This document shows, piece after piece, positions 1 to 35,498 of a stretch of 64,000 nucleotides of DNA (position 1 is its first letter; every line of letters begins with the position of its first letter). The stretch comes from Gammaproteobacteria bacterium (GTDB lineage: Bacteria; Pseudomonadota; Gammaproteobacteria; Natronospirales; JAJUFS01). The position numbers and the translations under genes were made by a program. The stretch covers positions 2,208-66,207 of the forward strand of contig DASVCH010000069.1 of NCBI GenBank assembly GCA_036381715.1. Reading direction: 5' to 3'. A model generated the notes under the pieces. The model worked only from the letters and a program-made list of their open reading frames with translations. It was not told the DNA's origin and searched no databases.

Positions 1-11
1 GTCGTTTTCCG

Positions 12-836
12 GTGACTGGCGCGGGCCTGGGCCTGCGGCGCGCGCTGCTGAACCCGCTCGCCGAACACCCCGCCGGCCTCGACTTCATGGAAGTCGCGCC
101 GGAAAACTGGATGCGGGTCGGCGGAAAGCTCGGACGGCAGTTCCGCGCTTTCACCGAGCGCTACCCTTTCACCTGTCATGGCCTTTCACTGTCGCTCGGC
201 GGCCCCGCGCCGCTGGACGAGGATTTCGTGCGCGAGGTCGGCACGTTTCTCGACACGCACCGCATCCGCTGCTACACGGAGCACCTCAGCTACTGTTCCG
301 ATGACGGGCATCTCTACGACCTGATGCCGATTCCGTTCACTGCGGAAGCCGTCGATTACGTTGCGGCGCGCATCCGCCGCGTGCAGGACATTCTTCAGCG
401 CCGCATCGCCATCGAAAACGTTTCCTATTACGCCGCACCCGGCGCCGAAATGACCGAAACCGAATTCGTCAACGCCGTGCTCGAGCGCGCCGATTGCGAC
501 CTGCTGCTGGACGTCAACAACATCTACGTCAACAGCATCAACCATCGGTACGATCCGCTCGAGTTCCTGCACGCGCTGCCCGCCGAACGCGTCGCGTATT
601 TCCACGTCGCGGGACATTACGAGGAAGCCGAGGACCTGCGCGTGGACACGCACGGCGCGGATGTCATCGACCCGGTCTGGGAACTGCTTGACGCGGCGTA
701 CGCGCATTGCGGCGTTGTGCCGACATTGCTGGAGCGCGACTTCAACATTCCGCCGCTGCCCGAGCTGCTCGCCGAGATCGAAACCATTCGCCGCTTTCAG
801 GCGAAGCATGCGGAACAGGAGGCGGCGCATGGCTGA
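12..836 (+). CDS. MNIO-family (DUF692/UPF0276) RiPP maturase, HvfB/BufB-like
   Basis: 274-aa ORF from GTG at 12. Motifs [32 protein letters not shown] and the ERD near the C-terminus are typical of DUF692 TIM-barrel proteins. It overlaps the following DUF2063 gene by 8 nt (ATGGCTGA). Confidence 0.8.
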
Positions 837-1584
837 TTTTCGCAAGCAGCAATACGCTTTCGCCGCGCATCTTCGAAACCCCGGCGTCAACGGCATGCCG
901 GAGGGCGTCGAAGACCGGCGCATGAAGATCTACCGCGATCTTTTCTTCAACAACATCCAGTCGCTGCTGGCGGGAACGTTCCCGGTGCTCCACCGCGTTC
1001 TCGGCCAAAGGCGCTGGGCGGTCCTGGTGCGCGACTTCTATCATCGCCATGTTTCGCACACGCCGCTGTTCACGGAAGTGCCGCGGGAGTTTCTCGGCTG
1101 GCTGGCGGAGGAATTCGGGAACGACGGTTCCTGGCCGGACTTCATTCAGGAACTCGCGCATTACGAGTGGGCGGAACTCGACGTGTCCATCGATCCGCGC
1201 GAAATCGAATCCGGAAATTTCGACGCGGACGGAAATCTTATGGACGGCGTGCCGGTCCTTTCTCCCGTGGCGCGATCGCTGGCCTACCGCTACCCGGTGC
1301 ATCGCATCGGGCCGGATTTCCAGCCGGATGCGCCCGGCGAGACGCCGACGTTCCTGGTGGTTCATCGCAAGCGCAACGACGAGGTCGGTTTCACGGAGAT
1401 CAACGGCGTGACCGCCCGCCTGCTGGAATTGCTGCGACAGAACGACACCGCAAGCGGACGCGAACTGCTGGAGCGCGTCGCCCGGGAAATCGGCCACCCG
1501 CAACCGGAAGTCGTGGTGACGGGCGGCAGGGAAATTCTCGACAACCTGAAAGAACAGGACATCATCCTGGGCGCCCGCCGCTGA
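829..1584 (+). CDS. DUF2063-domain partner protein of MNIO enzymes (HvfC/BufC-like)
   Basis: ATG at 829 inside ORF 661..1584 ([18 protein letters not shown]...[10 protein letters not shown]...). Length and N-terminal pattern fit DUF2063. It is translationally coupled to the DUF692 gene. Confidence 0.75.
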
Positions 1585-1625
1585 GCCCGACCTCGCCGGC
1601 GACCGCCGGACAAGAGGTAACAACA

Positions 1626-2240
1626 ATGAAGACGCTTCTCGACTGGGGAAACCGCTTCCAGGACGGCCTGGACTTCACCCGCAAGCTCGATTTTCTCGGC
1701 CCGCTCGCGCTGCGGCTCTATCTTGTGCCCGTGTTCTGGGTCGCGGGCACGAACAAGACCGCCGGCTTTGAAGACGTCGTCGCCTGGTTCGGCAACCCGG
1801 ACTGGGGGCTAGGCCTGCCGTTTCCCGCCGTGATGGCGGCGCTCGCCATCGGTGCGGAAATCGGCGGCAGTATCGCGCTGCTGACCGGATTCATGACGCG
1901 CTGGTTCAGCCTTCCGCTGATGATCACCATGCTGGTTGCGGCACTCGGCGTGCACTGGGAAAACGGCTGGCAGGCGGTCGCGGATCCGCAAAGCCCCTTT
2001 CCTCCGGGAAACATCGACGGAACCCTCGAACGCCTCGACCGCGCGAAAGACATCCTGCGCGAACACGGCAACTACGACTGGCTGACCGGGAACGGAAACT
2101 TCGTCGTCTCCAACAACGGCATCGAATGGGCGGCAACCTACTTCGTGATGCTGCTGGCGCTCTTCTTCCTGGGCGGCGGACGGTACGTGAGCGCCGACTA
2201 CTGGATCGCGAAGCGGTTTCGCAACGGCAATCCGCGTTGA
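1626..2240 (+). CDS. DoxX-family membrane protein (HvfX-like third member of the cluster)
   Basis: ATG at 1626 inside ORF 1167..2240 (MKTLLDWGNRF...LRLYLVPVFWVAGTNK...). Several hydrophobic helices. It lies 41 nt downstream of the DUF2063 gene on the same strand. Confidence 0.75.
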   Translation: MKTLLDWGNRFQDGLDFTRKLDFLGPLALRLYLVPVFWVAGTNKTAGFEDVVAWFGNPDWGLGLPFPAVMAALAIGAEIGGSIALLTGFMTRWFSLPLMITMLVAALGVHWENGWQAVADPQSPFPPGNIDGTLERLDRAKDILREHGNYDWLTGNGNFVVSNNGIEWAATYFVMLLALFFLGGGRYVSADYWIAKRFRNGNPR

Positions 2241-2259
2241 GGCGAAGGGCTGCGCGGCT

Positions 2260-3348
2260 TCAGTCCGCTTCGGGATCGGGAACGTCCTCGGGTCGCGCGG
2301 ATGTCTTCCGGATCTTTTCGCTCGCCTCGGCGTGATCGTCAGCGCTCGCCTCCGGTGCGTCCTGCATGGCGTCCGCCGACGGCTCGTACTGCAGCCGGTA
2401 CCAGATGGGCAGGTGGTCGGACCCGAAACGCGGCAGGACGTCGATATCCACCAGGGTGAAGTCGTCGCTGTGAAAGACATGATCCAGCGGCCAGCGCAGC
2501 AGGGGCATGTGCGCGTGAAAGGTGTTGAACATGCCGCGGCCGACGCGCGGGTCCAGCAGGCGGGAAATCTTGCGGAACAGCCGCGTGGTCGGCGACCACG
2601 CCACGTCGTTGAAATCGCCCGTCACGATGACGCGGCAGCGATCTTCCGAAACCGCGCGGCCGATGACGAGCACCTCGGCGTCGCGCTCGCGGCTCGTGGG
2701 GTTTTCCGTCGGGCTCGGCGGCGTCGGATGGAGCGCGTGGAAGCGGACACAATCCCCCGATGGCAGCCTCACGCCGGCGTGCATCGACGGCACGTCTTCG
2801 TCGACGAGGAATTCCAGCGAAGGGTTCTCGAGCGCGAGCCGGGAATAGAGCTGCATGCCGTAGCGGTTGTCGAGCGGGCAGTCCAGGCCGTGCGGGTGTG
2901 TTTCGCGCAAGTACTGCATGCGTCCTTGCCACCAGCGATCCGTTTCCAGCAACAGGACAAGATCCGGATCGCGTTCGGCAATGAGATCGCGCAGGCGTTC
3001 GTCATCGCGGTTGGACATCAGCACGTTGGCCACGAGAACCGAAATGCGTCGCCCATCATCGCCTGGCTCGCTCGCGTTCATGACTTCGCACGGAAAGAAC
3101 GGCGTGTACGGTGCGATCCACACCAGCTGGTAAACCAGGCAGGTAAACAGGACGAGGTGCAGCGGCCAGTAACCGGCCGGCAACACGACGGCCTGGGCAA
3201 GCAGCAGAATCGCCATTGCGGAGGCGATCTGCAGGCGCGGGAATTCGCCGGCGCGCGACCACCAGCTCTGCGCGGGCAGGAGCGGCAGCAGGGTGACAAT
3301 CGCCGCCAGCAGATCGATGACAATGAAAATGCCGGCGGCGACGTTCAC
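2260..3348 (-). CDS. Endonuclease/exonuclease/phosphatase (EEP) family protein with N-terminal membrane helices
   Basis: 362 aa. Hydrophobic N-terminus, then an EEP pattern (ISVLVANVLMSN...PDLVLLLETD...TPPSPTEN...VTGDFNDVAWS...GSDHLPI). Confidence 0.75.
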   Translation of the reverse strand: MNVAAGIFIVIDLLAAIVTLLPLLPAQSWWSRAGEFPRLQIASAMAILLLAQAVVLPAGYWPLHLVLFTCLVYQLVWIAPYTPFFPCEVMNASEPGDDGRRISVLVANVLMSNRDDERLRDLIAERDPDLVLLLETDRWWQGRMQYLRETHPHGLDCPLDNRYGMQLYSRLALENPSLEFLVDEDVPSMHAGVRLPSGDCVRFHALHPTPPSPTENPTSRERDAEVLVIGRAVSEDRCRVIVTGDFNDVAWSPTTRLFRKISRLLDPRVGRGMFNTFHAHMPLLRWPLDHVFHSDDFTLVDIDVLPRFGSDHLPIWYRLQYEPSADAMQDAPEASADDHAEASEKIRKTSARPEDVPDPEAD

Positions 3349-3369
3349 GCGCCGGCACCGGATTCGCGG

Positions 3370-3822
3370 TCAGCCTTTCGCCTTGCTGCTGGCAATGACT
3401 TCGAAGTCGTCGGTACGCGGCAGCTTCTCGAACGCAAGCCGCAACTCGTCCGGCGGCGCCGTGATCCGGCGCGCCTTGAGATCCAGCCAGGCGCCGTCCA
3501 TGTCGAGCACCGCGCACAACTCGTCGCCGCGGCGAATATTGTGAGCAATCCGCCACTTGCGGCCATCTTCCGACAATCCCGCAACCAGGAAGTCAATCGC
3601 GATCTCCTCCGACATGTGCAGTTCACGCAGGAATTTCGCCTGCTCGCGAAACAGCACCGGGCCGACCAGGTTCTTCGCCATCCACTTGAGCCCCAGGCCG
3701 CTCTGCTCGAGCAGCGCGACGCGCGCCTGCGCGCCATAGTCGTAATAGACGGAGTGGCGCACGTGGCCGTTCGGGTCGAGGTCGGCCCAGCGTACGGTGA
3801 TCTTCTGCGTAAAGGGTTCCAT
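3370..3822 (-). CDS. Hotdog-fold acyl-CoA thioesterase (4HBT/YbgC-like)
   Basis: 150 aa. The opening ITVRWADLDPNGHVRHSVYYDY is typical of 4HBT thioesterases. Confidence 0.7.
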   Translation of the reverse strand: MEPFTQKITVRWADLDPNGHVRHSVYYDYGAQARVALLEQSGLGLKWMAKNLVGPVLFREQAKFLRELHMSEEIAIDFLVAGLSEDGRKWRIAHNIRRGDELCAVLDMDGAWLDLKARRITAPPDELRLAFEKLPRTDDFEVIASSKAKG

Positions 3823-3862
3823 TCAAGACTTCTCCTGTCGATCAGCGAATATCAGTAAACGT

Positions 3863-4933
3863 TCACGGCCGCGGCGCCCACGCAAACCCGACGTGGAAAC
3901 CGAGATCCGCCGTGTTGTTGAAGTTGACCAGGTTTTCGGTCAGGGCGTAGCTCCAGACAAGATCGCCGTGACGCTGCCGCAGGCCGATCGATGCCTGGAA
4001 GACATTGGCGGTCAGTTCCGGATCGGCGCCGTCCTCGAACACGCTGCGCGCGCCGTTCAATTGCAGGACGAGGTTGAGATTTTCCGCCAGCCGGTTCTCC
4101 CAGGCAATGTTCACGGACGGTGCAAGACGGCGCGTGTGCTCGGGAAAGGGTTCGGCGCGGCCCGAATGAACCAGCGCAAGGCTCAGGTAAAGGCTGTTCC
4201 TTTCTCCATGCGCATGCCAGGACGCCTGAACGCCCGTGTCGGAGCTGCCTGTCGACCTGAAGCTGTTCGTGCCGTGAACCGATACCTTGTGCGCGAGCTC
4301 GAATGTCAGCGCGGAATGTTCCGGCAAGGGATGATAGTAGCGCACGCCGACGACCGGATCGCCGAACCCGCCTTGCACCGGCCGCTCCAGCAGGTAGAAC
4401 GTGTCGCCATCGAGAATCGCGACCGCCTGGAAATCGTTGCGGCTGATGAACTCGCGGCCGAAGGTGTCGAAACCGAACGACTCGTGAAAACTCTCGATCG
4501 TGCTGTCCAGGAAACCGCCACCGTAATAATGCACGGGCACCGAGAGGTACGCAGACCAGCGATCCGAGAAACCGTAGTGGCCGGTGAACTGGAAATAGCC
4601 GAGCGCGCCGTCGAACAGGAAGGCGTCCTCGGAAAGCTCGCGCAGGTTTCGTACGTCGTCGACGCTCAACTCGCCGCGCCGGCCGCGGGCCTGCAGGTAG
4701 TCCAGGACGTCTTCGTCCGCTGCGAAGGTGTTCGATTGCGACAGGTGCATTTCGACGGCGTATCGGCCGGGCGCGGGCGCAACGGCATGGTCCGGCAGCA
4801 TGTTCAGGCGCAACATCTGGAACGGGCCCATGTCGCGAATGCGAAGCGGCCCGTAGAATTCCTCGGCAAGGGCCTGCAGGCTGGCGAACGCCAGGGACAA
4901 CGCAATGATGACGATGCGAAACCCGTCCCCCAT
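3863..4933 (-). CDS. Exported hypothetical protein, possibly an outer-membrane beta-barrel (DUF3187-like, tentative)
   Basis: 356 aa with a signal peptide (IVIIALSLAFASLQALAEE). Alternating hydrophobic pattern and an aromatic-rich C-terminus. The family assignment is from memory only. Confidence 0.55.
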   Translation of the reverse strand: MGDGFRIVIIALSLAFASLQALAEEFYGPLRIRDMGPFQMLRLNMLPDHAVAPAPGRYAVEMHLSQSNTFAADEDVLDYLQARGRRGELSVDDVRNLRELSEDAFLFDGALGYFQFTGHYGFSDRWSAYLSVPVHYYGGGFLDSTIESFHESFGFDTFGREFISRNDFQAVAILDGDTFYLLERPVQGGFGDPVVGVRYYHPLPEHSALTFELAHKVSVHGTNSFRSTGSSDTGVQASWHAHGERNSLYLSLALVHSGRAEPFPEHTRRLAPSVNIAWENRLAENLNLVLQLNGARSVFEDGADPELTANVFQASIGLRQRHGDLVWSYALTENLVNFNNTADLGFHVGFAWAPRP

Positions 4934-4954
4934 GGCCAGGCCTCCGTCGGTCCG

Positions 4955-4978
4955 GCGGAATGGCAGGCGCCATTCCGC
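4955..4978 (-). terminator. 10-bp GC-rich hairpin just after the lpd stop (no U-tract)
   Basis: GCGGAATGGC-AGGC-GCCATTCCGC, 7 nt downstream of the lpd stop on the minus strand. Confidence 0.45.
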
Positions 4979-4984
4979 TCGAAC

Positions 4985-6811
4985 TCAGTGTTTTCGTTTC
5001 TTCGGCAGATACAGATCCGTCAGCGTGCCTTCGAACGCTTCCGCGGCGAAACACACCGTTTCCGACAATGTCGGGTGCGGGTGAATCGTGAGGCCGATAT
5101 CGGCCGCGTCGCAGCCCATCTCGACCGCCAGCGCGACTTCCGCGATCAGCTCGCCCGCGTTCGGTCCGACCATCGCGCCGCCAAGCACGCGTTCGGTCTT
5201 CGGATCGAACAGCAGCTTGGTGAAACCTTCATCGCGGCCCAGCGACAGCGAGCGGCCGGATGCCGCCCACGGGAACTTGCCGACTTCGTACGCGACCCCG
5301 TCCTTCTTCGCCTGCTCTTCCGTCAGGCCGACCCACGCGACTTCCGGATCCGTGTAGGCGACGGAAGGAATCACGCGCGCATCGAAGAAACGCTTCTCGC
5401 CGGCGCACACTTCCGCCGCGACCTTGCCCTCGTGCGTCGCCTTGTGCGCGAGCATGGGCTGGCCGACGATGTCGCCGATCGCGAAGATGTGTTCGACATT
5501 CGTGCGCATCTGCTTGTCGACCTTGATGAAGCCGCGTTCGTCCGCGTCGATGCCCGCCTTGTCCGCGTCGATCCGCTTTCCGTTGGGTACGCGGCCAACT
5601 GCAACGAGCACGCGGTCGAACAACTGGTCGGAACCGGGCGCATTCTTCCCGTCGAACGACACCTTGATGCCGTTCTTCTGCGCCTTCATTTCCGTCACCT
5701 TCGTGCCGGTCATGATGTTCGCGTAGCGCGCCTTGATGCGTTTCTCCAGCGGTCGCACCAGGTCCTTGTCCGCGCCGGGCATCAATTGATCCGCGAGCTC
5801 GACGACGGTGACTTCCGAACCGAGCGCATCATAAACGCAAGCCATTTCGAGACCGATGATGCCGCCGCCGATCACGAGCAGTCTTTCCGGGACATCCTTC
5901 AGCTCCAGCGCGCCGGTGGAATCCATGACGCGCTCGTCGTCCGGCGCAAACGGCAGTTTCACCGGTTCGGAACCGGCCGCGATGATGCACTTCTCGAACC
6001 GGATGACCTGCCGGCTTCCTTCATTGTCGACTTCGAGGTGATGTGCACCGGCGAACTTTCCCGAACCGGTGACGACGTTCACCTTGCGCTGCTTCGCCAT
6101 GGTGGCAAGACCGCCGGTGAGCTTCTTCACCACGTCGCCTTTCCAGCCGACGAGCTTCTTCGCATCGATTCTCGGTTTGCCGAACTCGACGCCGAATTCC
6201 GACATGTGCGCGGCCTCGTCGATCACCTTGGCCGCGTGCAGCAAGGCCTTCGACGGAATGCAGCCGACATTCAGGCACACGCCGCCCAGCGAATCCCAGC
6301 GCTCGACCAGCGTCACTTTCAGGCCGAGATCCGCGGCGCGAAACGCCGCCGTGTAACCGCCCGGGCCGGCGCCCAGCACCAGTACCTCGGTTTCGAGATC
6401 GACCTTGCCCTGGTAATCATCGGCTTTCGGAGCAGAAACTTCCTTCTCCCCCTCACTCCGGCCCTCTCCCCGGGGGGGAGAGGGAGATTCTTCGCCAGCC
6501 CTTGCGGCGGTACTTGGCGCTTCGGCTTGCGGCTCTTCCTTCGACTTTCGACTTTCGACTTTCGACGCTTCCGTGGCTTCGACAATCGCGATCACGCTGC
6601 CTTCCGAAACCTTGTCGCCGACCTTGACCTTCATTTCCTTGATCGTGCCGGCCTGCGGCGCAGGAACGTCCATTGCCGCCTTGTCGGTTTCGAGCGTGAT
6701 CAGCGGCGTTTCCTTCTCGACCGCGTCACCCGCCTTCACGAGCACGTCGATGATTTCGACGTTCTCGAAGTCGCCGATGTCGGGAACCTTTATTTCGATT
6801 TCACTTGGCAT
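4985..6811 (-). CDS. lpdA: Dihydrolipoyl dehydrogenase (E3) with N-terminal lipoyl domain
   Basis: 608 aa. Lipoyl domain (LETDKAAMDVPAP), charged linker, then GAGPGGY and the redox disulfide GGVCLNVGCIPSKALL. Last gene of the aceE-aceF-lpd string. Confidence 0.95.
   Translation of the reverse strand: MPSEIEIKVPDIGDFENVEIIDVLVKAGDAVEKETPLITLETDKAAMDVPAPQAGTIKEMKVKVGDKVSEGSVIAIVEATEASKVESRKSKEEPQAEAPSTAARAGEESPSPPRGEGRSEGEKEVSAPKADDYQGKVDLETEVLVLGAGPGGYTAAFRAADLGLKVTLVERWDSLGGVCLNVGCIPSKALLHAAKVIDEAAHMSEFGVEFGKPRIDAKKLVGWKGDVVKKLTGGLATMAKQRKVNVVTGSGKFAGAHHLEVDNEGSRQVIRFEKCIIAAGSEPVKLPFAPDDERVMDSTGALELKDVPERLLVIGGGIIGLEMACVYDALGSEVTVVELADQLMPGADKDLVRPLEKRIKARYANIMTGTKVTEMKAQKNGIKVSFDGKNAPGSDQLFDRVLVAVGRVPNGKRIDADKAGIDADERGFIKVDKQMRTNVEHIFAIGDIVGQPMLAHKATHEGKVAAEVCAGEKRFFDARVIPSVAYTDPEVAWVGLTEEQAKKDGVAYEVGKFPWAASGRSLSLGRDEGFTKLLFDPKTERVLGGAMVGPNAGELIAEVALAVEMGCDAADIGLTIHPHPTLSETVCFAAEAFEGTLTDLYLPKKRKH
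6445..6486. repeat. GC palindrome element (CCCTCTCCCC-GGG-GGGGAGAGGG) inside the lpd linker coding region
   Basis: Perfect 10-bp arms at 6462..6484. Translated in frame as SPPRGEGRSEGE. Confidence 0.8.
6539..6566. repeat. Four heptamer units (CTTCGAC, TTTCGAC x3) inside the lpd linker
   Basis: Counted by hand. Translated on the minus strand as SKVESRKSK. Confidence 0.8.
6570..6811. repeat. Lipoyl-domain coding repeat, copy in lpd
   Basis: Direct repeat of 8010..8251 at an offset of 1440 nt. Positions 6731..6793 versus 8171..8233 show 63 nt with a single mismatch. Confidence 0.85.
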
Positions 6812-6854
6812 TCACGGAACTCCGAAGATTCATTCTTCGTCGAATAAAATGATG

Positions 6855-6911
6855 GTGAGAGGTAAGAAGTAAGAGGATGAAAGCCGCGTATTCCATCCTC
6901 TCACTTCTCAC
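6855..6911. repeat. Heptamer-based imperfect inverted repeat in the aceF-lpd spacer
   Basis: GTGAGAG GTAAGAA GTAAGAG GATG, then a 14-nt loop, then CATCCTCTCACTTCTCAC. It overlaps the aceF stop. Confidence 0.75.
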
Positions 6912-8251
6912 AACACGAGGTTACGCCGTTCTGCAAGCACTTCGGCCAGGAACGTCGTGAAGCGCGCCGCAGCGGCGCCGTCAATGATGCGGTGATCGTA
7001 GGACAGCGACAGCGGCAGCATGAGGCGCGGCATGAACTTCTTGCCGTTCCACACCGGTTTCATCTGCGCCTTCGAGACGCCAAGGATCGCGACTTCGGGC
7101 GCGTTCACGATCGGCGTGAAATACGTGCCGCCGATGGAGCCGAGCGAGGAAATCGAAAAGCACCCGCCCTGCATGTCGGCCGCTTTCAGCTTGCCGTTGC
7201 GCGCCTTCTCGGACAGATCGCCCAGCTCCTTGCCGATCTCGAAGATGTCCTTTTTGTCGGCGTCGCGCACCACCGGCACGACCAGGCCGCCCGGCGTATC
7301 GACGGCGAAGCCGATGTGAAAATATTTCTTGAATACCTGCTGCTCGCCATCCGGCGACAGCGAGCTGTTGAAGTTCGGGAACTCCTGCAGCGCCTGCACG
7401 CAGGCCTTGATGACGAAGGTCAGCGGCGTGAGCTTCGCGCCGACTTTCTCGGCGTCGGACTTCAGCGCCTTGCGCATGGATTCGAGTTCGGTGATGTCGG
7501 CCTCGTCGTGCTGGGTGACGTGCGGCACGTTCACCCACGCGGCGTGCAGGCGCGGGCCGGAAATCTTCTTGATGCGCGGCAGCGGTTTCGTTTCGATTTC
7601 GCCGAACTTGCCGAAATCGACTTCGTGGACCTGCGGCAGGCCGGCGCCTCCTGGCGCGCCTCCCGAACGCATGACGGATTTCACGAAACCCTTCACGTCC
7701 TCGTGCGTGATGCGCCCCTTGATGCCGGAACCGTTCACCTTGCCGAGATCGACGCCGAGCTCGCGCGCGAACTTGCGCACCGAGGGCGAGGCGTGCGCCT
7801 TCGAGAAGGATTCCTCGTTCACTGCAGGCAGGTCGGCAGAAGGACGAACGGCTTCCTGCGTGCCTTCCCCCTCACCCCGGCCCTCTCCCCGGAGGGGAGA
7901 GGGAGGCGCTTCGTTGACCTCTGCAACAGGTTTCGGCGCTTCGACTTGCGGTTCTTCTTCCTTCTCCCTTATCCCTTCTTCCTGTTCCTTGTCCTTCGAC
8001 TTCGACTCGTCCCCGGCTTCCAGCACCGCGATCACCGTCCCTTCGGACACCTTGTCGCCGTTACCGACCTTCATCTCCACGATCTTCCCGGCCGCCGGCG
8101 ACGGCACGTCCATCGCGGCCTTGTCGGTTTCCAGCGTGATGAGCGGCGTTTCCTTTTCGACAGTGTCGCCCGCCTTCACGAGCACGTCGATGATCTCGAC
8201 GTTCTCGAAGTCGCCGATGTCGGGAACCTTTATCTCAAACTTGTCAGCCAT
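6908..8251 (-). CDS. aceF: Dihydrolipoamide acetyltransferase (pyruvate dehydrogenase E2)
   Basis: ORF 6908..8269 trimmed to the ATG at 8251 (MADKFEIKVPDIG, GGAG RBS). One lipoyl domain, an E3-binding domain (ASPSVRKFARELGVDL) and a catalytic SYDHRIIDGA motif. Confidence 0.95.
   Translation of the reverse strand: MADKFEIKVPDIGDFENVEIIDVLVKAGDTVEKETPLITLETDKAAMDVPSPAAGKIVEMKVGNGDKVSEGTVIAVLEAGDESKSKDKEQEEGIREKEEEPQVEAPKPVAEVNEAPPSPLRGEGRGEGEGTQEAVRPSADLPAVNEESFSKAHASPSVRKFARELGVDLGKVNGSGIKGRITHEDVKGFVKSVMRSGGAPGGAGLPQVHEVDFGKFGEIETKPLPRIKKISGPRLHAAWVNVPHVTQHDEADITELESMRKALKSDAEKVGAKLTPLTFVIKACVQALQEFPNFNSSLSPDGEQQVFKKYFHIGFAVDTPGGLVVPVVRDADKKDIFEIGKELGDLSEKARNGKLKAADMQGGCFSISSLGSIGGTYFTPIVNAPEVAILGVSKAQMKPVWNGKKFMPRLMLPLSLSYDHRIIDGAAAARFTTFLAEVLAERRNLVL
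7865..7905. repeat. Second copy of the GC palindrome element (CCCTCTCCCC-GGA-GGGGAGAGGG) inside the aceF linker coding region
   Basis: Perfect 10-bp arms at 7881..7903. Translated in frame as SPLRGEGRGEGEG. Confidence 0.8.
7954..8007. repeat. Degenerate pyrimidine heptamer run (CTTCTTC CTTCTCC CTTATCC CTTCTTC CTGTTCC ...TTCGAC TTCGAC) inside the aceF linker
   Basis: Read directly. Translated on the minus strand as ESKSKDKEQEEGIREKEEE. Confidence 0.7.
8010..8251. repeat. Lipoyl-domain coding repeat, copy in aceF
   Basis: See the copy at 6570..6811. The protein N-termini are nearly identical (E/IKVPDIGDFENVEIIDVLVKAGD.VEKETPLITLETDKAAMDVP). Confidence 0.85.
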
Positions 8252-8296
8252 TCGTGGGCTCCGAAGCATTTCGTTTTGCCGAGTATTTTTTGCTTC

Positions 8297-8369
8297 GTGA
8301 GAGGTGAGAAGTAAGAGGTGAGAGGACTAAAGCGGCCTGCCCTCTCACTGCTCACCTCTTACCTCTCAC
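8297..8369. repeat. Heptamer-based inverted repeat in the aceE-aceF spacer
   Basis: GTGAGAG GTGAGAA GTAAGAG GTGAGAG, then a 16-nt loop, then CCTCTCA CTGCTCA CCTCTTA CCTCTCA. Confidence 0.8.
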
Positions 8370-8374
8370 TTTTC

Positions 8375-11071
8375 TTATGCCAGCCACGGATGCGGCTTGT
8401 CCGCATCGATGCCGAGCTTCTTCATGGCGTCCTTGACGGTCTTCATTTCGATCGCGCCATCATCCGCCAGCGCCCTGAGCGCGGCGAACGCCACATGCCT
8501 GCGATCGACTTCGAAGAAGCGGCGCAACTGTTCGCGCGAATCCGAGCGACCGAAACCGTCCGTGCCCAGTGCGACGTAGCGGCGCGGCACCCAGGGCCGG
8601 ATCTTGTCCGCGAAGGCGCGCATGTAATCGCTCGCGGCGATGACGGGGCCTTCAGTCTTCTCGAGCTGTTGCGTGACCCAGGGCAGTTTCGGTTTCTTGT
8701 CGGGGTTCAGCAGGTTCCAGCGGTCCGCGTTCATGCCGTCGCGGCGCAGCTCCGTGAAACTGGTCGCGCTCCACACGTCGGCGGCAATGCCGAAATCCTT
8801 CTCGAGGATTTCGGCCGCGGCCTCGACCTCGCGAAGAATGGTGCCGGAACCCAGCAGCTGCACGCGCGCCTTTGCCTTCTTCTGCGCGGAAGTCCTCAAG
8901 GAATACATGCCCTTGAGAATGCCTTCGTCGGCACCTTCCGGTTTCGCCGGATGACGGTAGTTCTCGTTCATCAGCGTGATGTAATAGAAGACGTCTTCGT
9001 GGTCTTCGTACATCCGCTTCAGGCCGTCGCGCAGGATCACGGCAAGCTCGTAGGAATACGTCGGATCGTAGGCGACGCAATTCGGAATCGTCGCGGCGAG
9101 AATGTGGCTGTGGCCGTCCTCGTGCTGCAGGCCTTCGCCATTCAGCGTGGTCCGTCCCGCCGTCGCGCCCAGCAGGAAGCCGCGCGCGCGCATGTCGCCG
9201 GCCGCCCAGGCGAGATCTCCTATGCGCTGGAAGCCGAACATGGAATAGAAGATATAGAAAGGAATCGTCGTGACACCGTGGTTCGCGTACGACGTCGCCG
9301 CCGCGATCCAGGACGACATCGAACCCGCCTCGGTGATGCCCTCTTCCAGCATCTGGCCCTGCTTGTCCTCGCGGTAGAACATCAGCTGGTCCGCGTCCTG
9401 CGGTTCGTAGAGCTGGCCTTTCGAGGAATAGATGCCGTACTGGCGGAACAGGCTTTCCATGCCGAAGGTGCGCGCCTCGTCCGGCACGATCGGCACGATG
9501 CGCTTGCCGATGTCCTTGTTCCTGAGCAGCGCGGTCAGCATGCGCACGAAGGCCATGGTCGTGGAGATTTCGCGCTCGCCCGTGTCTTCGAGCTGCTGTT
9601 TGAACGCATCGAGTCCGGGAATGGCGAGCTTTTCGTTGTTCGGCAGGCGCTTCGGCAGGTAGCCGCCCAGCTTCTCGCGGTGCTCCTGCAGGTACTGGTA
9701 CTCGCGGCTGTCCTTCTCGAAGGTCAGGAACGGCACCTTGCCGGAATCGATGTCCTCGTCGGAGACCGGCAGGTTGAAACGATCGCGCACCCACTTGAGA
9801 TCGTCGGCGTCGAGTTTCTTCTTCTGGTGCGCGCCCATCGTGCCCTGCACGGACGCGCCAAGGCCGAAACCTTTCACGGTCTTGGCGAGAATCACCGTCG
9901 GCTGGCCGTGGTTGCCGTTCACCGCGCGGTCGTACGCCGCATAGACCTTGCGCGCATCGTTGCCGCCGCGGTTGAGTTTCCAGATTTCCTCGTCGGACAT
10001 GTGCGCGACCATTTCCTTGAGTTCCGGGTAACGGCCGAAGAAATGTTCGCGCACGTACGCGCCGTCGCGCGACTTGAAGGTCTGGTATTCGCCATCGACG
10101 CATTCTTCCATCACGCGGCGCAGCAGGCCTTTCCGGTCCTGCGCCAGCAGCGGATCCCAGCGCGAACCCCACAGCACCTTGAGCACGTGCCAGCCCGTGC
10201 CGCGGAAGTCGGATTCCAGTTCCTGGATGACCTTGCCGTTGCCGCGCACCGGGCCGTCGAGCCGCTGCAGGTTGCAGTTGATGACGAACACGAGGTTGTC
10301 GAGTTTCTCGCGCACGGCGAGCGAGATGGCGCCGCGCGATTCCGGTTCGTCCATTTCGCCGTCGCCGAGGAAGGCCCAGACCTTGCGGCTGTTCGGTTCT
10401 ATCAAGCCACGCGCTTCAAGATATTTCATGAAGCGTGCGTGGTAGATCGCCATGATCGGGCCGAGGCCCATGGAGACGGTCGGGAACTGCCAGTATTCCG
10501 GCATCAGCCAGGGATGCGGGTACGACGAGAGTCCCTTGCCATCGACTTCCTCGCGGAAGTTGTTCAGCTGCTCTTCCGTCAGGCGGCCTTCCAGGAAGGA
10601 GCGCGCGTAGATGCCCGGCGAGGAATGACCCTGGATGTAGATGAGATCGCCGCGATTTTCTGCCGACGCGCCCTTCCAGAAATGATTGAAGCCGACTTCA
10701 TACAACTGCGCGGCGGAGGCGTAGGTCGCGATGTGTCCGCCGAGTTCCGTGCCCTTGCGGTTCGCGTTGACCACCATGGCCACCGAATTCCAGCGGATGT
10801 ACGCCTCGATGCGCTTCTCGATCTCGCGATCGCCGGGGTATTGCGGCTCCTGGTGATTCGGGATCGTGTTGAGGTACGCGGTTTCGGCGGAATACGGCAG
10901 GTAGGCGCCCTGGCGGCGCGCATGATCGACAAGCTGCTCAAGGAGAAAATGCGCGCGCTCCGCGCCGTGCACGCTCAGGGTCGCATCGAGCGACTCCAGC
11001 CATTCCTGCGTCTCCTGGGGGTCCACGTCGTGACGTTCGTGCGCGTCCTGGACGTTTTTCTTGTCGGCCAT
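8375..11071 (-). CDS. aceE: Pyruvate dehydrogenase E1 component (homodimeric type)
   Basis: 898 aa. The opening MADKKNVQDAHERHDVDPQETQEWLESL and the overall length match AceE. It sits upstream of aceF. Confidence 0.95.
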   Translation of the reverse strand: MADKKNVQDAHERHDVDPQETQEWLESLDATLSVHGAERAHFLLEQLVDHARRQGAYLPYSAETAYLNTIPNHQEPQYPGDREIEKRIEAYIRWNSVAMVVNANRKGTELGGHIATYASAAQLYEVGFNHFWKGASAENRGDLIYIQGHSSPGIYARSFLEGRLTEEQLNNFREEVDGKGLSSYPHPWLMPEYWQFPTVSMGLGPIMAIYHARFMKYLEARGLIEPNSRKVWAFLGDGEMDEPESRGAISLAVREKLDNLVFVINCNLQRLDGPVRGNGKVIQELESDFRGTGWHVLKVLWGSRWDPLLAQDRKGLLRRVMEECVDGEYQTFKSRDGAYVREHFFGRYPELKEMVAHMSDEEIWKLNRGGNDARKVYAAYDRAVNGNHGQPTVILAKTVKGFGLGASVQGTMGAHQKKKLDADDLKWVRDRFNLPVSDEDIDSGKVPFLTFEKDSREYQYLQEHREKLGGYLPKRLPNNEKLAIPGLDAFKQQLEDTGEREISTTMAFVRMLTALLRNKDIGKRIVPIVPDEARTFGMESLFRQYGIYSSKGQLYEPQDADQLMFYREDKQGQMLEEGITEAGSMSSWIAAATSYANHGVTTIPFYIFYSMFGFQRIGDLAWAAGDMRARGFLLGATAGRTTLNGEGLQHEDGHSHILAATIPNCVAYDPTYSYELAVILRDGLKRMYEDHEDVFYYITLMNENYRHPAKPEGADEGILKGMYSLRTSAQKKAKARVQLLGSGTILREVEAAAEILEKDFGIAADVWSATSFTELRRDGMNADRWNLLNPDKKPKLPWVTQQLEKTEGPVIAASDYMRAFADKIRPWVPRRYVALGTDGFGRSDSREQLRRFFEVDRRHVAFAALRALADDGAIEMKTVKDAMKKLGIDADKPHPWLA

Positions 11072-18229: not shown

Positions 18230-18820
18230 TCACGCCGCGAAGTTCTTCTCCGCGAACTCCCAGTTCAGCACTTCGTCGAACCAGGCCTCGAGGTACTTCG
18301 GCCGCGCGTTGCGGTAGTCGATGTAGTACGCGTGCTCCCAGACGTCGCAGGTGAACAGCGGCGTGCCCATCTCGGCGTGCGCGATCGGCGTGTCGGCGTC
18401 GTCGGTCTGCACGATGCCGACCGTGCCGTCCGGCTTCTTCACCAGCCAGCCCCAGCCGGAGGCGAAGTTGCCGGTCGAGGTTTCGATGAACTTCGTGCGG
18501 AAATCATCGAAGGAGCCGAAGGCCTTGTCGATGGCCGCGGCGAGATCGCCACTCGGCCTGCCGCCGCCGTTCGGGCTCATCGAGTTCCAGTAGAAGGTGT
18601 GGTTCCAGACCTGCGCGGACTGGTTGAACAGGCCGCCCTTCGATTTCCGGATGATCTCTTCCAGCGGCATGTCCTCGAATTCCGTGCCGGCGATCAGCGC
18701 GTTGGTCTTGTCCACGTAAGCCTTGTGATGCTTGCCGTGATGAAATTCCAGCGTTTCCCTCGAGACGTGCGGCGCAAGCGCGTCCAGCGCGTAGGGAAGT
18801 TCGGGCAACTCGTGCTTCAT
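18230..18820 (-). CDS. sodB: Iron superoxide dismutase
   Basis: 196 aa. Motifs LPELPYALDALAPHVSRETLEFHHGKHH and DVWEHAYYIDYRN. Confidence 0.9.
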   Translation of the reverse strand: MKHELPELPYALDALAPHVSRETLEFHHGKHHKAYVDKTNALIAGTEFEDMPLEEIIRKSKGGLFNQSAQVWNHTFYWNSMSPNGGGRPSGDLAAAIDKAFGSFDDFRTKFIETSTGNFASGWGWLVKKPDGTVGIVQTDDADTPIAHAEMGTPLFTCDVWEHAYYIDYRNARPKYLEAWFDEVLNWEFAEKNFAA

Positions 18821-31036: not shown

Positions 31037-32503
31037 TCAGTTCACGGCGCGCGAAGCAACCAGTGTTTGCGCGATCTGCCGGCGCCGGCGAAACGAATCG
31101 CGCAACAGCCAGGCAGCGACGAGCGACAGGCTGACGCTGACCCCCCACGCCGCGGGCGAATCGAACGCGGACGCGTTGCGCGCCGCGTGCACGAGCAACG
31201 CCACGATCAGCATCACGCCGGTCACGCCGCGAAACGCAAACGCCGCCGGAAACCGCTTTGCCAGGACGGAAAACGCGATGGCGGAAACCAGCGTCGTCCA
31301 GAACACGCCGACCAGCCAGCCGATCGACGCGATGCCTGACGACGCCAGCAGCATCACCAGCGCCATCGCCGCCGGCGTGCCCCAGATTGTCGCCGCCCAT
31401 GCGCGCTCCAGTGCGGGCGCCGCGCGCCCGCGCTGGCGGCGTTTCAGCAGCCAGATGTTGAAACCGCTGGCGATCATCACGCAGGCAAGGATCCCCAGCA
31501 CGCCGTACGCGAATTTCACCCACAGTCCGCCGAACGAGCCGAAATGCAGCGGGTACAGCGCAGCCGCGATCTGCTGGCCGGCGGGCCCGTCGGACAATCC
31601 CGTGTTGTCCGCGAGTTCGCCGTTTGCATTGAACGGATAGTAATCGCCGTAGATCAGGCGGCGCGGGTGCTGCGCGAGAATGTTCGCGCTCTGCCCCTTC
31701 GTCGCGGGATCGTGGAAACTGACGTACCACGGCACAAGACCGGGATACTGCGCGTCGAATGCGCGCAAGGCCGAATCGATGTCCGCGAGCGGCGCCGCGC
31801 TCTTGTCGCCCTCGACTTCCGCGCCGAAGATCGGCGCGTAAAAGCCTTCAACATCGTCCGGCGACAGCGTCACCGCGACCAGGCTCGCGAGCCCCAGCGC
31901 CGCGCCGGTGAACGCGACGACGAGATGAAACGGCGCGGCCCACACGCCAAGCCGGTTGTGCGTATCGGTTTCACGCAAGCGGTCCGTGCCCTTGCGGCGC
32001 AGCTTGAACGCATCGCGAAACAGTTTCGGATGCGAAAGCACGCCGGAAATCACCAGCGCCGTCATCAGCATGCCGAGAATGCCGACCAGCGTCAGCCCGA
32101 AGAAACCCGGCAGCGTGAGGTAGTAATGCAGCTCGGTCAGGAAATCCGTCCAGGGATGACTGACGGATGCAAGCAATTCACCGCCGGCGTTCGCATACCA
32201 GCCGGTTTCGTCCGCCGTCACCGTCATGCGCGGCATGCTTTCGACGGGCATGGCGATATCGAAATGATGCGGCTGATCGACGCGCTCAAGCGCGTTCCGC
32301 GCGGCGCGCTCGACGGACGCGGGTTTCGCTTCGGAAAATTCCGGCACCCCCGGCTGTTCCCAGCGCGCGAATTCCTCATGAAAGACCATGGCCGTGCCGC
32401 TCAGGCACAGCACGTACAGCAGCGCGCTTGCGGCAAGCCCGACAACGGTATGCCCGGACAGCATGCGTGCCACGAAACGCGGCGGCAGTTTCGACCACAT
32501 CAT
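31037..32503 (-). CDS. PepSY-associated TM-helix protein (PiuB-like, iron-regulated membrane protein)
   Basis: 488 aa. Opens RMLSGHTVVGLAASALLYVLCLSGTAMVFHEE, with several TM helices. Sits downstream of a TonB-dependent receptor. Confidence 0.8.
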   Translation of the reverse strand: MMWSKLPPRFVARMLSGHTVVGLAASALLYVLCLSGTAMVFHEEFARWEQPGVPEFSEAKPASVERAARNALERVDQPHHFDIAMPVESMPRMTVTADETGWYANAGGELLASVSHPWTDFLTELHYYLTLPGFFGLTLVGILGMLMTALVISGVLSHPKLFRDAFKLRRKGTDRLRETDTHNRLGVWAAPFHLVVAFTGAALGLASLVAVTLSPDDVEGFYAPIFGAEVEGDKSAAPLADIDSALRAFDAQYPGLVPWYVSFHDPATKGQSANILAQHPRRLIYGDYYPFNANGELADNTGLSDGPAGQQIAAALYPLHFGSFGGLWVKFAYGVLGILACVMIASGFNIWLLKRRQRGRAAPALERAWAATIWGTPAAMALVMLLASSGIASIGWLVGVFWTTLVSAIAFSVLAKRFPAAFAFRGVTGVMLIVALLVHAARNASAFDSPAAWGVSVSLSLVAAWLLRDSFRRRRQIAQTLVASRAVN

Positions 32504-33102
32504 GAAATCTCCGGCGCCAGCATCAGGCCGGCGACACTCACGAGCGCGACGCCTGCCATGACCAGCGAACGGCGGCGCAGCGGAACGTCATAGGTCGTCC
32601 AGATGGCGAGCAGCGCCCAGGCGAACGGCATCAGCAGCAAGGCGGCGGCAAGACGGTTCGCCGCCGAACCGGTTTCGACATTCCACCACGCGAACGCGGC
32701 CGCGGTGATCGAGAGCGCGATCGCGGCGGACACGGGACCGGCGAGCAGGAACACCCAGATTCGCCGCAGCAGCAGGCGCGCGCCGGATTGTTCATTGCCG
32801 TTTCCATTCGTGCGCGGCTCGCGCACCAAGCGCTTGCGCGAACCGTTGCCTTCCCGGCCGGCAAGCAGCACCAGCACGAACCCCGCGAGCATGAAAGCGA
32901 TGATGGCGAACGCAACGCCGCGATCCGCGCCGGACGCCGCGGTCCAGGGAACGAACGACAGCAGCAGCAGGGTCCACGCCGACAGCATGAACGCGAGACG
33001 CCGTTGCGGGCGACCTGCGCGGCGCGCGCGCCAGCCCTGCCGCAAAAGCAGGGCGGCGGCAATGGGCATTGCCGCCGCGATGACGAGAATCAACAGGTTC
33101 AT
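32500..33102 (-). CDS. Integral membrane protein of the receptor operon (DUF3325/DUF3649-like, tentative)
   Basis: 200 aa, mostly hydrophobic helices. ATGA overlap with the PepSY gene. Confidence 0.55.
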   Translation of the reverse strand: MNLLILVIAAAMPIAAALLLRQGWRARRAGRPQRRLAFMLSAWTLLLLSFVPWTAASGADRGVAFAIIAFMLAGFVLVLLAGREGNGSRKRLVREPRTNGNGNEQSGARLLLRRIWVFLLAGPVSAAIALSITAAAFAWWNVETGSAANRLAAALLLMPFAWALLAIWTTYDVPLRRRSLVMAGVALVSVAGLMLAPEIS

Positions 33103-33314: not shown

Positions 33315-35498
33315 TCAGTCGAACCGGTACGCCACCGTACCGACCACCGTCCGGCGTTCGCCCCAGAAACAGTCGCCGCGCGCAAGGCAGGTCGCAAGGT
33401 ATTCCTTGTCCGCGGCGTTGCGCACGTTCAGGCGAAAGTCCCAGTCGCGCATCTCGTAACCGATCATGAAGTCCGCAAGCGTATAGGACGGCGTGCGGAT
33501 GTCATCGGCGCCATCGAAACTTTCGCCGACGTAGCGTACGCCGAGACCCGTCTTGAATCCCGGCCAGAAATGCGGACGGTAACCCAGCCACGCGGACGCC
33601 TGGTTTTCCGGCACCGATGCAAACTGGAAACCGTTCGCATTTTCGGTGTCGAGCCTGCTCGCATTCACCTCGAGCGCGAAATCGCCGAACTGCGTTTTCG
33701 ATTCGACTTCGACGCCACGAATGTTCGCAATGCCTTCCTGCTGCGAGGGCGCGTCGGGAAGCGCGAACGGATTCGCGAGGTTCGACTGCTCGATGTCGAA
33801 CGCGGCCACGGTGATGAAGGTGTGCGACCCGATCGGCTGGAACTTGATGCCGATTTCCGTCTGCTCGCCTTCCTGCGGCTTGAGCGGTTCCTGGGTGACG
33901 TTGTCGACGCCGATCACCGGTTCGAAGGATTCCGCGTAGCTCACGTACGGCGCGATGCCGTTGTCGAACCAGTACAGCGCGCCGACGCTGGCGCTTACCG
34001 CGTCGTCTTCCTGCACGGCGGCACCCGTGTCGGTGCTCACGTCGTCGAAACGCACGCCGGCAGTGAAACGCCAGCTTTTCCAGGAAATCTGATCGTTGAT
34101 GTACAGGCCGGTGTCCTGCGTGTTCGCTTCCGGTCCATCGATGAAGAACTGGTCGAGAATGTCCTGCGACGGAAACGCGCCGTACTCGGGATCGAACAGG
34201 TTGATCCAGAACTGATCGCCGTAAACGGCGTCCGGCTGGCCGGTGGCAAGGTCGTATCCCAGCGCGTAGGCGTTCGCGAGATCGTTCTCGGTCGTCACGT
34301 CCTGGTATTGAAGGCCGATCATCAGCTCGTGGTCGAGTGCGCCGGTCGAGAACTCCGCGCGCAGGCGCGTGTCCATCGCAAGCTGTTCCGAGGTCGCGTC
34401 GCTGGCGTAGAACGTCCGCGGCACCATGCCGTCGCGATACAGCGAACCGTCAGCGTTGAAAACGTAGCGCGTGCCGCCGATGAACGCCGGCCACGCCTGG
34501 TTGTAGTCCGCCGCGCCGTCCGTCCAGCGCGCGGTCGCTTCGATCGACCAGGTCGCGTTGATCATGTGATCGGCGAGCAACGTCAGCGATTGGGTTTCGG
34601 TGTTGTAGTGATCGAACGCCGGGTCGCCGTAAAAGCTTTCGATATCGAGGAATTCGCCATTCGGTGCCGGATACAGGGTGCCGTAAAGGGGAACGAACTG
34701 CTCGCCGGTGGCGCCGCTGGATTCCTGGAAGTTCGCAAGCAGGGTGAGATTCGTGCGCGCGCTCGGGCTCCACGTCACCGACGGCGCGAACACCCAGGCG
34801 TCGTTCTCGACGAAATCCACCTGCGTGCCCGCGTCGCGATACACCGCGGTCACGCGGTACAGCAGGCTGCCGGATTCGTTCATCGCGCCGCCGAAATCCG
34901 TCGCCAGCTGCATGTGATCGAAGTTGCCGAGCTGCATCACGACTTCGGAACGCAGGTTCGCGCGCGGACGCTTGCTGACCACGTTCACCAGGCCGCCGGG
35001 CGAACCCTGCCCGTACAGCACGGACGCGGGACCTTTCAGGATCTCGACCTGCTCAAGCGTGTAAACGTGCGGGCGGGTGTTGTTGTAGTTGCCGAACAGC
35101 GCCTGCAGCGAGTCGCGGTATTCCGGCACGTCCAGGCCGCGCACTTTCACCCAGTCGCCGCGCGTCGCGAAACCGTAGGCCTCGCCGAACACGCCGGCGG
35201 AATACAGGTAGGCGTCGGCAAGCTCCAGCGCGCCGCGCGCTTCGAGCGTGTCGGCTGTCTCGATGGAGACCGAGCGTGCCGTTTCCATGATGGGCGTATC
35301 GGATTTCAGCGCCGAATAGCGCGACATCTCGCCGGTGACGGTGACCTCGGCGAGACGCGCGGCCTCCTCGTCCTGCCGGTTCGAAACGTCCTCCGCCGTT
35401 GCCGATTCCGGCGCCCGGGACTCCTCTTCTTCTGCCGCCGCGACCATCGTCGCGCCAAGTCCCATGAAAAGCGCCAGAAGCCATGTCCCGTACCGCAT
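33315..35498 (-). CDS. TonB-dependent siderophore receptor
   Basis: 727 aa. Signal peptide, plug-domain motifs (EVTVTGE..., IEILKGPASVLYGQGSPGGLVN) and a beta-barrel. A Fur-box-like palindrome lies 47 nt upstream. Confidence 0.9.
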   Translation of the reverse strand: MRYGTWLLALFMGLGATMVAAAEEEESRAPESATAEDVSNRQDEEAARLAEVTVTGEMSRYSALKSDTPIMETARSVSIETADTLEARGALELADAYLYSAGVFGEAYGFATRGDWVKVRGLDVPEYRDSLQALFGNYNNTRPHVYTLEQVEILKGPASVLYGQGSPGGLVNVVSKRPRANLRSEVVMQLGNFDHMQLATDFGGAMNESGSLLYRVTAVYRDAGTQVDFVENDAWVFAPSVTWSPSARTNLTLLANFQESSGATGEQFVPLYGTLYPAPNGEFLDIESFYGDPAFDHYNTETQSLTLLADHMINATWSIEATARWTDGAADYNQAWPAFIGGTRYVFNADGSLYRDGMVPRTFYASDATSEQLAMDTRLRAEFSTGALDHELMIGLQYQDVTTENDLANAYALGYDLATGQPDAVYGDQFWINLFDPEYGAFPSQDILDQFFIDGPEANTQDTGLYINDQISWKSWRFTAGVRFDDVSTDTGAAVQEDDAVSASVGALYWFDNGIAPYVSYAESFEPVIGVDNVTQEPLKPQEGEQTEIGIKFQPIGSHTFITVAAFDIEQSNLANPFALPDAPSQQEGIANIRGVEVESKTQFGDFALEVNASRLDTENANGFQFASVPENQASAWLGYRPHFWPGFKTGLGVRYVGESFDGADDIRTPSYTLADFMIGYEMRDWDFRLNVRNAADKEYLATCLARGDCFWGERRTVVGTVAYRFD

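Follow-up and report, generated by a model that had tools for sequence, protein, structure and literature searches.

We analyzed a 64,000-nt stretch of DNA (positions 2,208 to 66,207 of contig DASVCH010000069.1; hereafter the window) whose left end carries hvfB, hvfC and hvfX, genes of an Hvf-type system in which a multinuclear non-heme iron oxidase (MNIO) and its partner protein modify the Cys residues of a precursor peptide, HvfA. This hvf locus has no precursor gene in cis, and a gene encoding a DUF1841 protein fills the position upstream of hvfB. Comparison with related loci indicates that an ancestral hvfA between the DUF1841 gene and hvfB was deleted in the window lineage, while the enzyme genes were kept intact. 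We consider it probable that these Hvf-type enzyme and accessory genes, having lost their cis hvfA, still constitute a functional operon, the EGKCG-type precursor of which would come from another part of the genome. An hvf locus organized without a precursor is unusual, albeit not unprecedented.

The hvf genes and the gene upstream of hvfB

The region left of the window was read from a 7,078-nt contig (L001) of a metagenome-assembled genome (MAG; NCBI GCA_964629845.1) that encodes an HvfC identical to that of the window. The two sequences match at 4,453 of the 4,477 overlapping bases (99.5%), position 1 of the window corresponding to position 2602 of L001. Directly 5' of hvfB, L001 carries a gene for a 143-residue DUF1841 protein (PF08897) with one Cys and no signal peptide, the stop codon of which lies 10 nt ahead of the hvfB ATG, with an AGGA within the spacer. 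Beyond it lie an oppositely oriented M28 peptidase gene and, farther out, nth. On the window's own 74,516-nt contig, DUF1841, HvfB, HvfC, DoxX and a protein of the endonuclease/exonuclease/phosphatase (EEP) family bear consecutive accessions, HEX7029876 to HEX7029880 (Table 1), and therefore no gene is annotated between DUF1841 and hvfB. An earlier interpretation made from the letters of the window (the sequence-only reading) had placed a precursor gene just left of position 12, in a cluster cut by the window edge; both L001 and the consecutive accessions put DUF1841 there, and the edge clips nothing more than the 5' end of hvfB.

We searched for a precursor by several routes. A regular expression for EGKCG-like open reading frames (ORFs) returned none in the six frames of the window or of L001, and a custom hidden Markov model (HMM) trained on 44 HvfA sequences yielded nothing better than E = 4 in either. 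Within the 2.6 kb of L001 upstream of hvfB, no ORF bearing EGKCG or similarity to the HvfA HMM was found; the upstream extension proposed by the sequence-only reading as a means of finding the precursor yielded no precursor-like ORF, a result that on that reading's own terms refutes its prediction. Small Cys-containing ORFs with signal-peptide-like N-termini matched no NCBIfam precursor model among the 10 of 20 candidates scanned, a scan of the crude gene set for xCG motifs found no precursor, and a regular expression for a DUF2282-like motif matched nothing in the window or L001. The precursor type anticipated earlier was also wrong, as DUF2282 is the bufferin-1 precursor and the Hvf-type relatives described below use an EGKCG-repeat HvfA.

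The assignment of the three proteins to DUF692, DUF2063 and DoxX was borne out by Pfam. HvfB matched PF05114 (MbnB_TglH_ChrH, formerly DUF692; E 5.1e-108, profile positions 1-262 of 263), which places it squarely within the DUF692/MNIO family; HvfC matched PF09836 (DUF2063; E 1.6e-25, residues 7-92) and PF22106 (NGO1945_C; E 3.6e-32, residues 145-240), and HvfX matched PF07681 (DoxX; E 2e-20). The HvfC_C/NGO1945_C domain contains the recognition element (RRE) of ribosomally synthesized and post-translationally modified peptide (RiPP) systems. All three proteins also passed the cut-offs of their NCBIfam equivalog models: HvfB scored 452.3 bits with NF003818 (cut-off 360; profile positions 1-264), HvfC 303.4 bits with NF050145 (cut-off 142) and HvfX 235.1 bits with NF050144 (cut-off 80). 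In contrast, HvfB fell short of both the bufferin maturase model BufB (NF050167; 273.5 bits, cut-off 310) and the methanobactin model MbnB (TIGR04159; 37.8 bits, cut-off 325). Based on these scores, the window genes belong to the Hvf (oxazolin/captophorin) branch rather than to the bufferin or methanobactin branches, so that of the Hvf/bufferin-type label given earlier the first half stands and the second does not.

Three co-directional ORFs were recovered on the forward strand, the first called from position 12 (12-836) and the others as listed in Table 1, and the first two overlap by 8 nt, as previously noted, the hvfC ATG occupying positions 829-831 and the hvfB stop codon positions 834-836. 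The first gene does not start at position 12, however, as the GTG there is codon 9 (Val9) and internal. The true start is an ATG 13 nt left of position 1 (L001 2589); the window clips hvfB by 4 codons and 1 nt, leaves the neighboring genes uncut and contains the first complete hvfB codon at position 3. Full-length HvfB (HEX7029877.1; 282 residues, N-terminus MGGESRFPV) is identical to the window translation. Shine-Dalgarno sequences precede hvfC (AGGAGG, 817-822) and hvfX (AAGAGG, 1612-1617).

Related loci, known systems and the loss of hvfA

When a single genome per GTDB species was scanned, 80 related loci emerged with HvfB identities of 66-77%, all from Gammaproteobacteria, mostly uncultured, and including Thiogranum, Thiohalobacter, Nevskiales and Chromatiales. 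hvfA lay directly 5' of hvfB in 62 of the 80 and encoded a signal peptide, a conserved NPFxMxELSSGYMVA segment and EGKCG repeats; three of the upstream ORFs, tested against the NCBIfam HvfA model NF050137, scored 41-97 bits (cut-off 19.5). Twelve of the 62 hvfA-bearing loci displayed the order DUF1841-hvfA-hvfB-hvfC-hvfX, usually with nth ahead, and in hvfA-bearing loci the gaps between DUF1841 and hvfA measured several hundred bases. Since these 12 loci keep DUF1841 upstream of hvfA, DUF1841 is an old neighbor of the hvf cluster.

Other loci of the same scan (L019, L035, L036 and L067) resembled L001 in having DUF1841 directly before hvfB and no hvfA, with spacers of ~50-100 nt. Closer relatives, drawn from the protein database at HvfB identities of 76-87%, shared the hvfA-less arrangement of the window lineage, with DUF1841-hvfB spacers of +4 nt in L084, -4 nt (an ATGA overlap) in L085-L087, +25 nt in L094, +14 nt in L095 and +35 nt in L096. 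The 10 kb on either side of the hvf genes in L084, L085, L094 and L096 contained no HvfA-like ORF, nor did those flanks of L095 that were examined (4.3 kb upstream). In all, the hvfA-less DUF1841-hvfB junction occurs in at least 10 lineages, that of the window included, and extends down to ~70% HvfB identity. In a neighbor-joining tree of HvfB and HvfC, the window lineage, L084 and L085 grouped at 100% bootstrap. Strict adjacency of hvfA and hvfB is not required, since hvfA lies 0.9-6.5 kb upstream of hvfB in L006, L028, L050 and L080.

The characterized systems are H. influenzae HvfABC, Fontimonas FonABC and that of N. gonorrhoeae. In such systems the partner protein HvfC binds HvfA, the precursor (PMC11252979), and studies of homologues show that HvfB needs HvfC for its active mixed-valent diiron state and that HvfBC oxidizes the Cys of each EGKCG repeat by four electrons to 5-thiooxazole, a structure initially described as an oxazolone/thioamide pair and since revised (bioRxiv 10.64898/2026.07.17.739211). 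HvfA is made with a Sec signal peptide and, once modified, the peptide binds Cu(I); HvfX has no known role (PMC11252979). Both 5-thiooxazole formation and Cu(I) binding are known only for the homologues from nontypeable H. influenzae (NTHi), Fontimonas and N. gonorrhoeae.

Comparison with these and other known systems revealed both shared and distinct features. The NTHi operon (hvfX-hvfA-hvfB-hvfC; oxazolin; PMC11252979) encodes the same three protein families, has hvfB and hvfC likewise coupled, and shares with the window the HvfB site-3 motifs DVNN and VDTHG (N175, D242, H244). In contrast to the NTHi operon, the window locus lacks hvfA, is joined to a DUF1841 gene and has hvfX after hvfC, whereas in NTHi it precedes hvfA, and its host is an uncultured environmental gammaproteobacterium instead of a pathogen. 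The fontiphorin genes fonABC of Fontimonas thermophila ('captophorin' class; bioRxiv 10.1101/2025.11.18.689057) encode an MNIO-PME1 pair that falls, like that of the window, in the Lys-Cys (EGKCG) group, whereas the window locus has no precursor in cis. The bufferin genes bufABCD (a DUF2282 or Buf2 precursor, BufB, BufC and DoxX; PMC12452194) comprise the same MNIO, DUF2063 and DoxX set, share the predicted conversion of Cys to 5-thiooxazole and are likewise linked to copper; however, the window HvfB scores under the BufB cut-off, and DUF1841 stands upstream in place of a DUF2282 or Buf2 precursor.

MNIO loci without an adjacent precursor have been described previously: ~4,000 MNIOs of a large sequence similarity network cluster lack a recognized one, and precursor genes away from MNIO genes have also been reported (Antoine et al. 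2025, PMC12452194). Like the window locus, such loci pair an MNIO with a DUF2063 partner and have no adjacent Buf1, Buf2, EGKCG or CxxxxC precursor, but in the window the history can be read. Because hvfA is still found between DUF1841 and hvfB in syntenic relatives, the window locus represents a secondary deletion of the precursor gene followed by retention of the enzymes.

Two side observations concern HvfA itself. In L005 (9398-9970), L007, L011, L022, L027 and L081, HvfA contains an internal EF-hand-like segment (e.g. MDADGDGKVTKDEF) between blocks of EGKCG repeats; these proteins resemble the Buf_EGKCG/EF-hand fusions described earlier (PMC12452194). In a Nevskiales MAG (L012, 2167-2391), the usual hvfA position is occupied by a 74-residue ORF with a signal-peptide-like N-terminus, an Ala/Pro/Glu-rich tail and zero Cys, which may be a degenerate or a different precursor.

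Conservation of the enzymes and their probable substrate

We next consider how well the enzymes have been kept. Columns with at least 95% conservation across 61 hvfA-linked homologues were taken as conserved (110 in HvfB, 40 in HvfC). The window HvfB deviates at none of the 110 and the L001 HvfB at a single one, at which the window has Ser, the consensus residue; the HvfC of L001 and the window deviates at none of the 40, and the hvfA-linked sequences themselves deviate on average at 0.9 (HvfB) and 0.5 (HvfC) columns. When aligned to 3BWW, an MNIO structure from Histophilus somni (E 3.5e-74), HvfB retains the motifs ENxSYY, DVNN, HxAGH (as HVAGH), VDTHG and LLERDF intact. The conserved DVNN and VDTHG motifs hold the site-3 iron ligands, N175, D242 and H244, which were shown to be essential in HvfB (bioRxiv 10.64898/2026.07.17.739211). 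In FonB, the Glu of EGKCG is held in position by Arg15 and Arg16, Asp249 serves as the catalytic base, and Phe250 makes contact with the Lys and Gly (bioRxiv 10.1101/2025.11.18.689057). Since the equivalents of these residues are present in the window HvfB as GLGLRR and LLERDF, the enzyme still seems suited to an EGKCG-type substrate. Ratios of nonsynonymous to synonymous substitution (dN/dS) among the window lineage, L084 and L085 (Table 1) likewise suggest purifying selection on the hvf enzyme genes that is, at the rough resolution of these values, similar to that on the nearby lpdA gene.

Taken together, these findings make a functional hvf operon, with its precursor supplied from another locus, the most likely reading. 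According to this model, hvfA was lost from the DUF1841-hvfB interval, leaving hvfB 10 nt after DUF1841; transcription from the DUF1841 promoter would extend through hvfBCX; and the substrate of HvfBC would be an EGKCG-type peptide whose gene lies elsewhere in the genome. Several points weigh against this model. No unlinked hvfA emerged from the searches, which covered the window, L001 and the flanks of relatives, and co-transcription with DUF1841 is read from gene spacing. Synonymous divergence (dS 0.6-1.4) is near saturation, which makes the dN/dS values only rough. Although the best neighbor-joining tree unites the eight hvfA-less loci included in it as one clade, bootstrap support for that clade is only 33%, and the most economical interpretation, that hvfA was lost once and long ago, is not demonstrated. 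Lastly, sister lineages are shedding the system: L084 lacks hvfX and L088-L093 lack the whole hvfBCX-EEP block, so that the locus could conceivably be a remnant in the process of disappearing.

The enzymes might instead have been retargeted, either to a Cys peptide other than EGKCG encoded elsewhere or to DUF1841 as substrate or partner. The tight DUF1841-hvfB spacing (-4 to +35 nt in L001, L084, L085 and L094-L096), retention of the pair even where the upstream context differs (L096) and the existence of the ~4,000 large-cluster MNIOs discussed above are each consistent with such a switch, but we regard it as unlikely. HvfB keeps the Arg-Arg and Asp-Phe pairs tied to EGKCG recognition, and in hvfA-bearing loci DUF1841 is also found upstream of hvfA, behind promoter-sized gaps. 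The DUF1841 protein has no signal peptide, and in L096, L035 and L036 an Ala, Thr or Ile stands in place of its single Cys, which disfavors a role for this Cys as the substrate. Moreover, DUF1841 displays dN/dS values of 0.09-0.27 in L088, a lineage without any hvf genes; its retention there under purifying selection indicates that its function is independent of hvf. DUF1841 as a substrate of HvfBC was a candidate that we rejected, given the lack of a signal peptide, the unconserved Cys and its persistence in the hvf-less lineage.

We judged it quite unlikely that the operon is a decaying remnant, its enzymes left without a substrate by the loss of hvfA and simply not yet degraded. The absence of hvfA from the 64-kb window and from the examined flanks of L084, L085 and L094-L096 would fit such decay, as would the gene losses in sister lineages. 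In L084 (10845-12713), whose HvfB is 87% identical to that of the window lineage, hvfX is missing and a convergent EEP gene directly follows hvfC, with hvfB and hvfC intact. In L088-L093, whose DUF1841 is 74% identical to that of the window lineage, hvfB, hvfC, hvfX and the EEP gene are all absent, while the shared flanks comprise an M28 peptidase, DUF1841, a 4HBT thioesterase, DUF3187 and lpdA-aceF-aceE. Nevertheless, all three window ORFs are intact and preceded by good Shine-Dalgarno sequences, invariant columns show virtually no deviation, and purifying selection appears as strong as on lpdA across lineages with a dS of ~0.6-1.4. Persistence of the hvfA-less layout in at least 10 lineages, to ~70% HvfB identity, is also difficult to reconcile with a system merely awaiting degradation.

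That HvfBC constitutes a long-lived maturase pair unlinked from any precursor, in an operon with DUF1841 as its new partner, regulator or substrate, strikes us as very unlikely; if true, the function of MNIO-PME1 pairs would extend past the maturation of a secreted peptide encoded next to them. Finally, a complete hvfA- or bufA-hvfBCX cluster with the precursor gene immediately left of the window, as first supposed, is scarcely credible: such a layout occurs in the 62 related loci and in the characterized NTHi operon (PMC11252979), but it is contradicted by the 10-nt DUF1841-hvfB interval of the 99.5%-identical L001, by the consecutive HEX7029876 (DUF1841) and HEX7029877 (HvfB) on the window's contig, and by the precursor-free 2.6 kb upstream in L001.

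Hvf, bufferin and captophorin systems constitute a large and recently recognized means of copper handling in Pseudomonadota. The window locus adds nothing to their known chemistry; rather, it offers a clean natural case of a precursor gene deleted from a position that is still recognizable, with the enzyme pair kept under selection of housekeeping strength. Retention of the pair after this deletion implies that an MNIO and its partner can act on precursors whose genes lie elsewhere, in which event genome mining that requires an adjacent precursor would miss or misjudge such loci. The case also cautions that a cluster found at a window edge need not continue beyond it. The point of real interest is the substrate of these well-kept enzymes.

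DUF1841 and the wider neighborhood

No mention of DUF1841 was found in the literature searched, including the supplements of PMC12452194. The protein is conserved and cytoplasmic, and we speculate that its conserved His residues (FLHMGMH, H..EH) might bind metal. Upstream of the gene, L001 has an exact TATAAT hexamer (2111-2116), overlapped by an inverted repeat, AATTC-CGGC-GAATT (2114-2127), that is short enough to have arisen by chance; a promoter and terminator scan of L001 positions 1900-5000 for consensus promoters reported none at 2111-2127. In L088-L093 (e.g. L088 6001-6885), a convergent thioesterase gene lies directly after DUF1841.

As summarized in Table 1, the hvf genes are followed by an EEP gene on the opposite strand, whose presence or absence tracks that of hvfBC in the window's clade. 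The pyruvate dehydrogenase genes aceE, aceF and lpdA converge on the hvf operon, a context common to those hvfA-less relatives whose downstream flank was examined. The lpdA product is a 608-residue protein with a lipoyl-type domain at its N-terminus (PF00364 was recorded for the L084 and L085 homologues).

Table 1. Genes at and just beyond the left end of the window and the pyruvate dehydrogenase genes that converge on them (dN/dS values are rough, see text)
Gene	Product	Window coordinates	Strand	Accession	dN/dS	Remarks
DUF1841 gene	DUF1841 protein			HEX7029876		
hvfB	MNIO (DUF692) peptide maturase	1..836	+	HEX7029877	0.08-0.14 (among window, L084, L085)	5'-truncated by window; PF05114, NF003818
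hvfC	HvfB partner (PME type 1)	829..1584	+	HEX7029878	0.18-0.35 (among window, L084, L085)	DUF2063/HvfC_N and NGO1945_C/HvfC_C domains; NF050145
hvfX	DoxX-family membrane protein accompanying Hvf operons	1626..2240	+	HEX7029879	0.20 (window vs L085)	PF07681, NF050144
EEP gene	endonuclease/exonuclease/phosphatase family protein	2260..3348	-	HEX7029880		
aceE, aceF, lpdA	pyruvate dehydrogenase genes	4985..11071	-		lpdA: 0.10-0.17 (among window, L084, L085)	lpdA: nearby housekeeping gene

The remaining observations come from crude ORF calls. No copper-handling genes were noticed near the hvf genes. On the reverse strand, positions 18230-18820 encode a product that starts MKHELPELPYALDALAPH...HHGKHH and is Fe/Mn superoxide dismutase-like, ORFs at 31037-33102 have hydrophobic, membrane-like N-termini, and a large ORF at 33315-35498 has a signal-peptide-like N-terminus.

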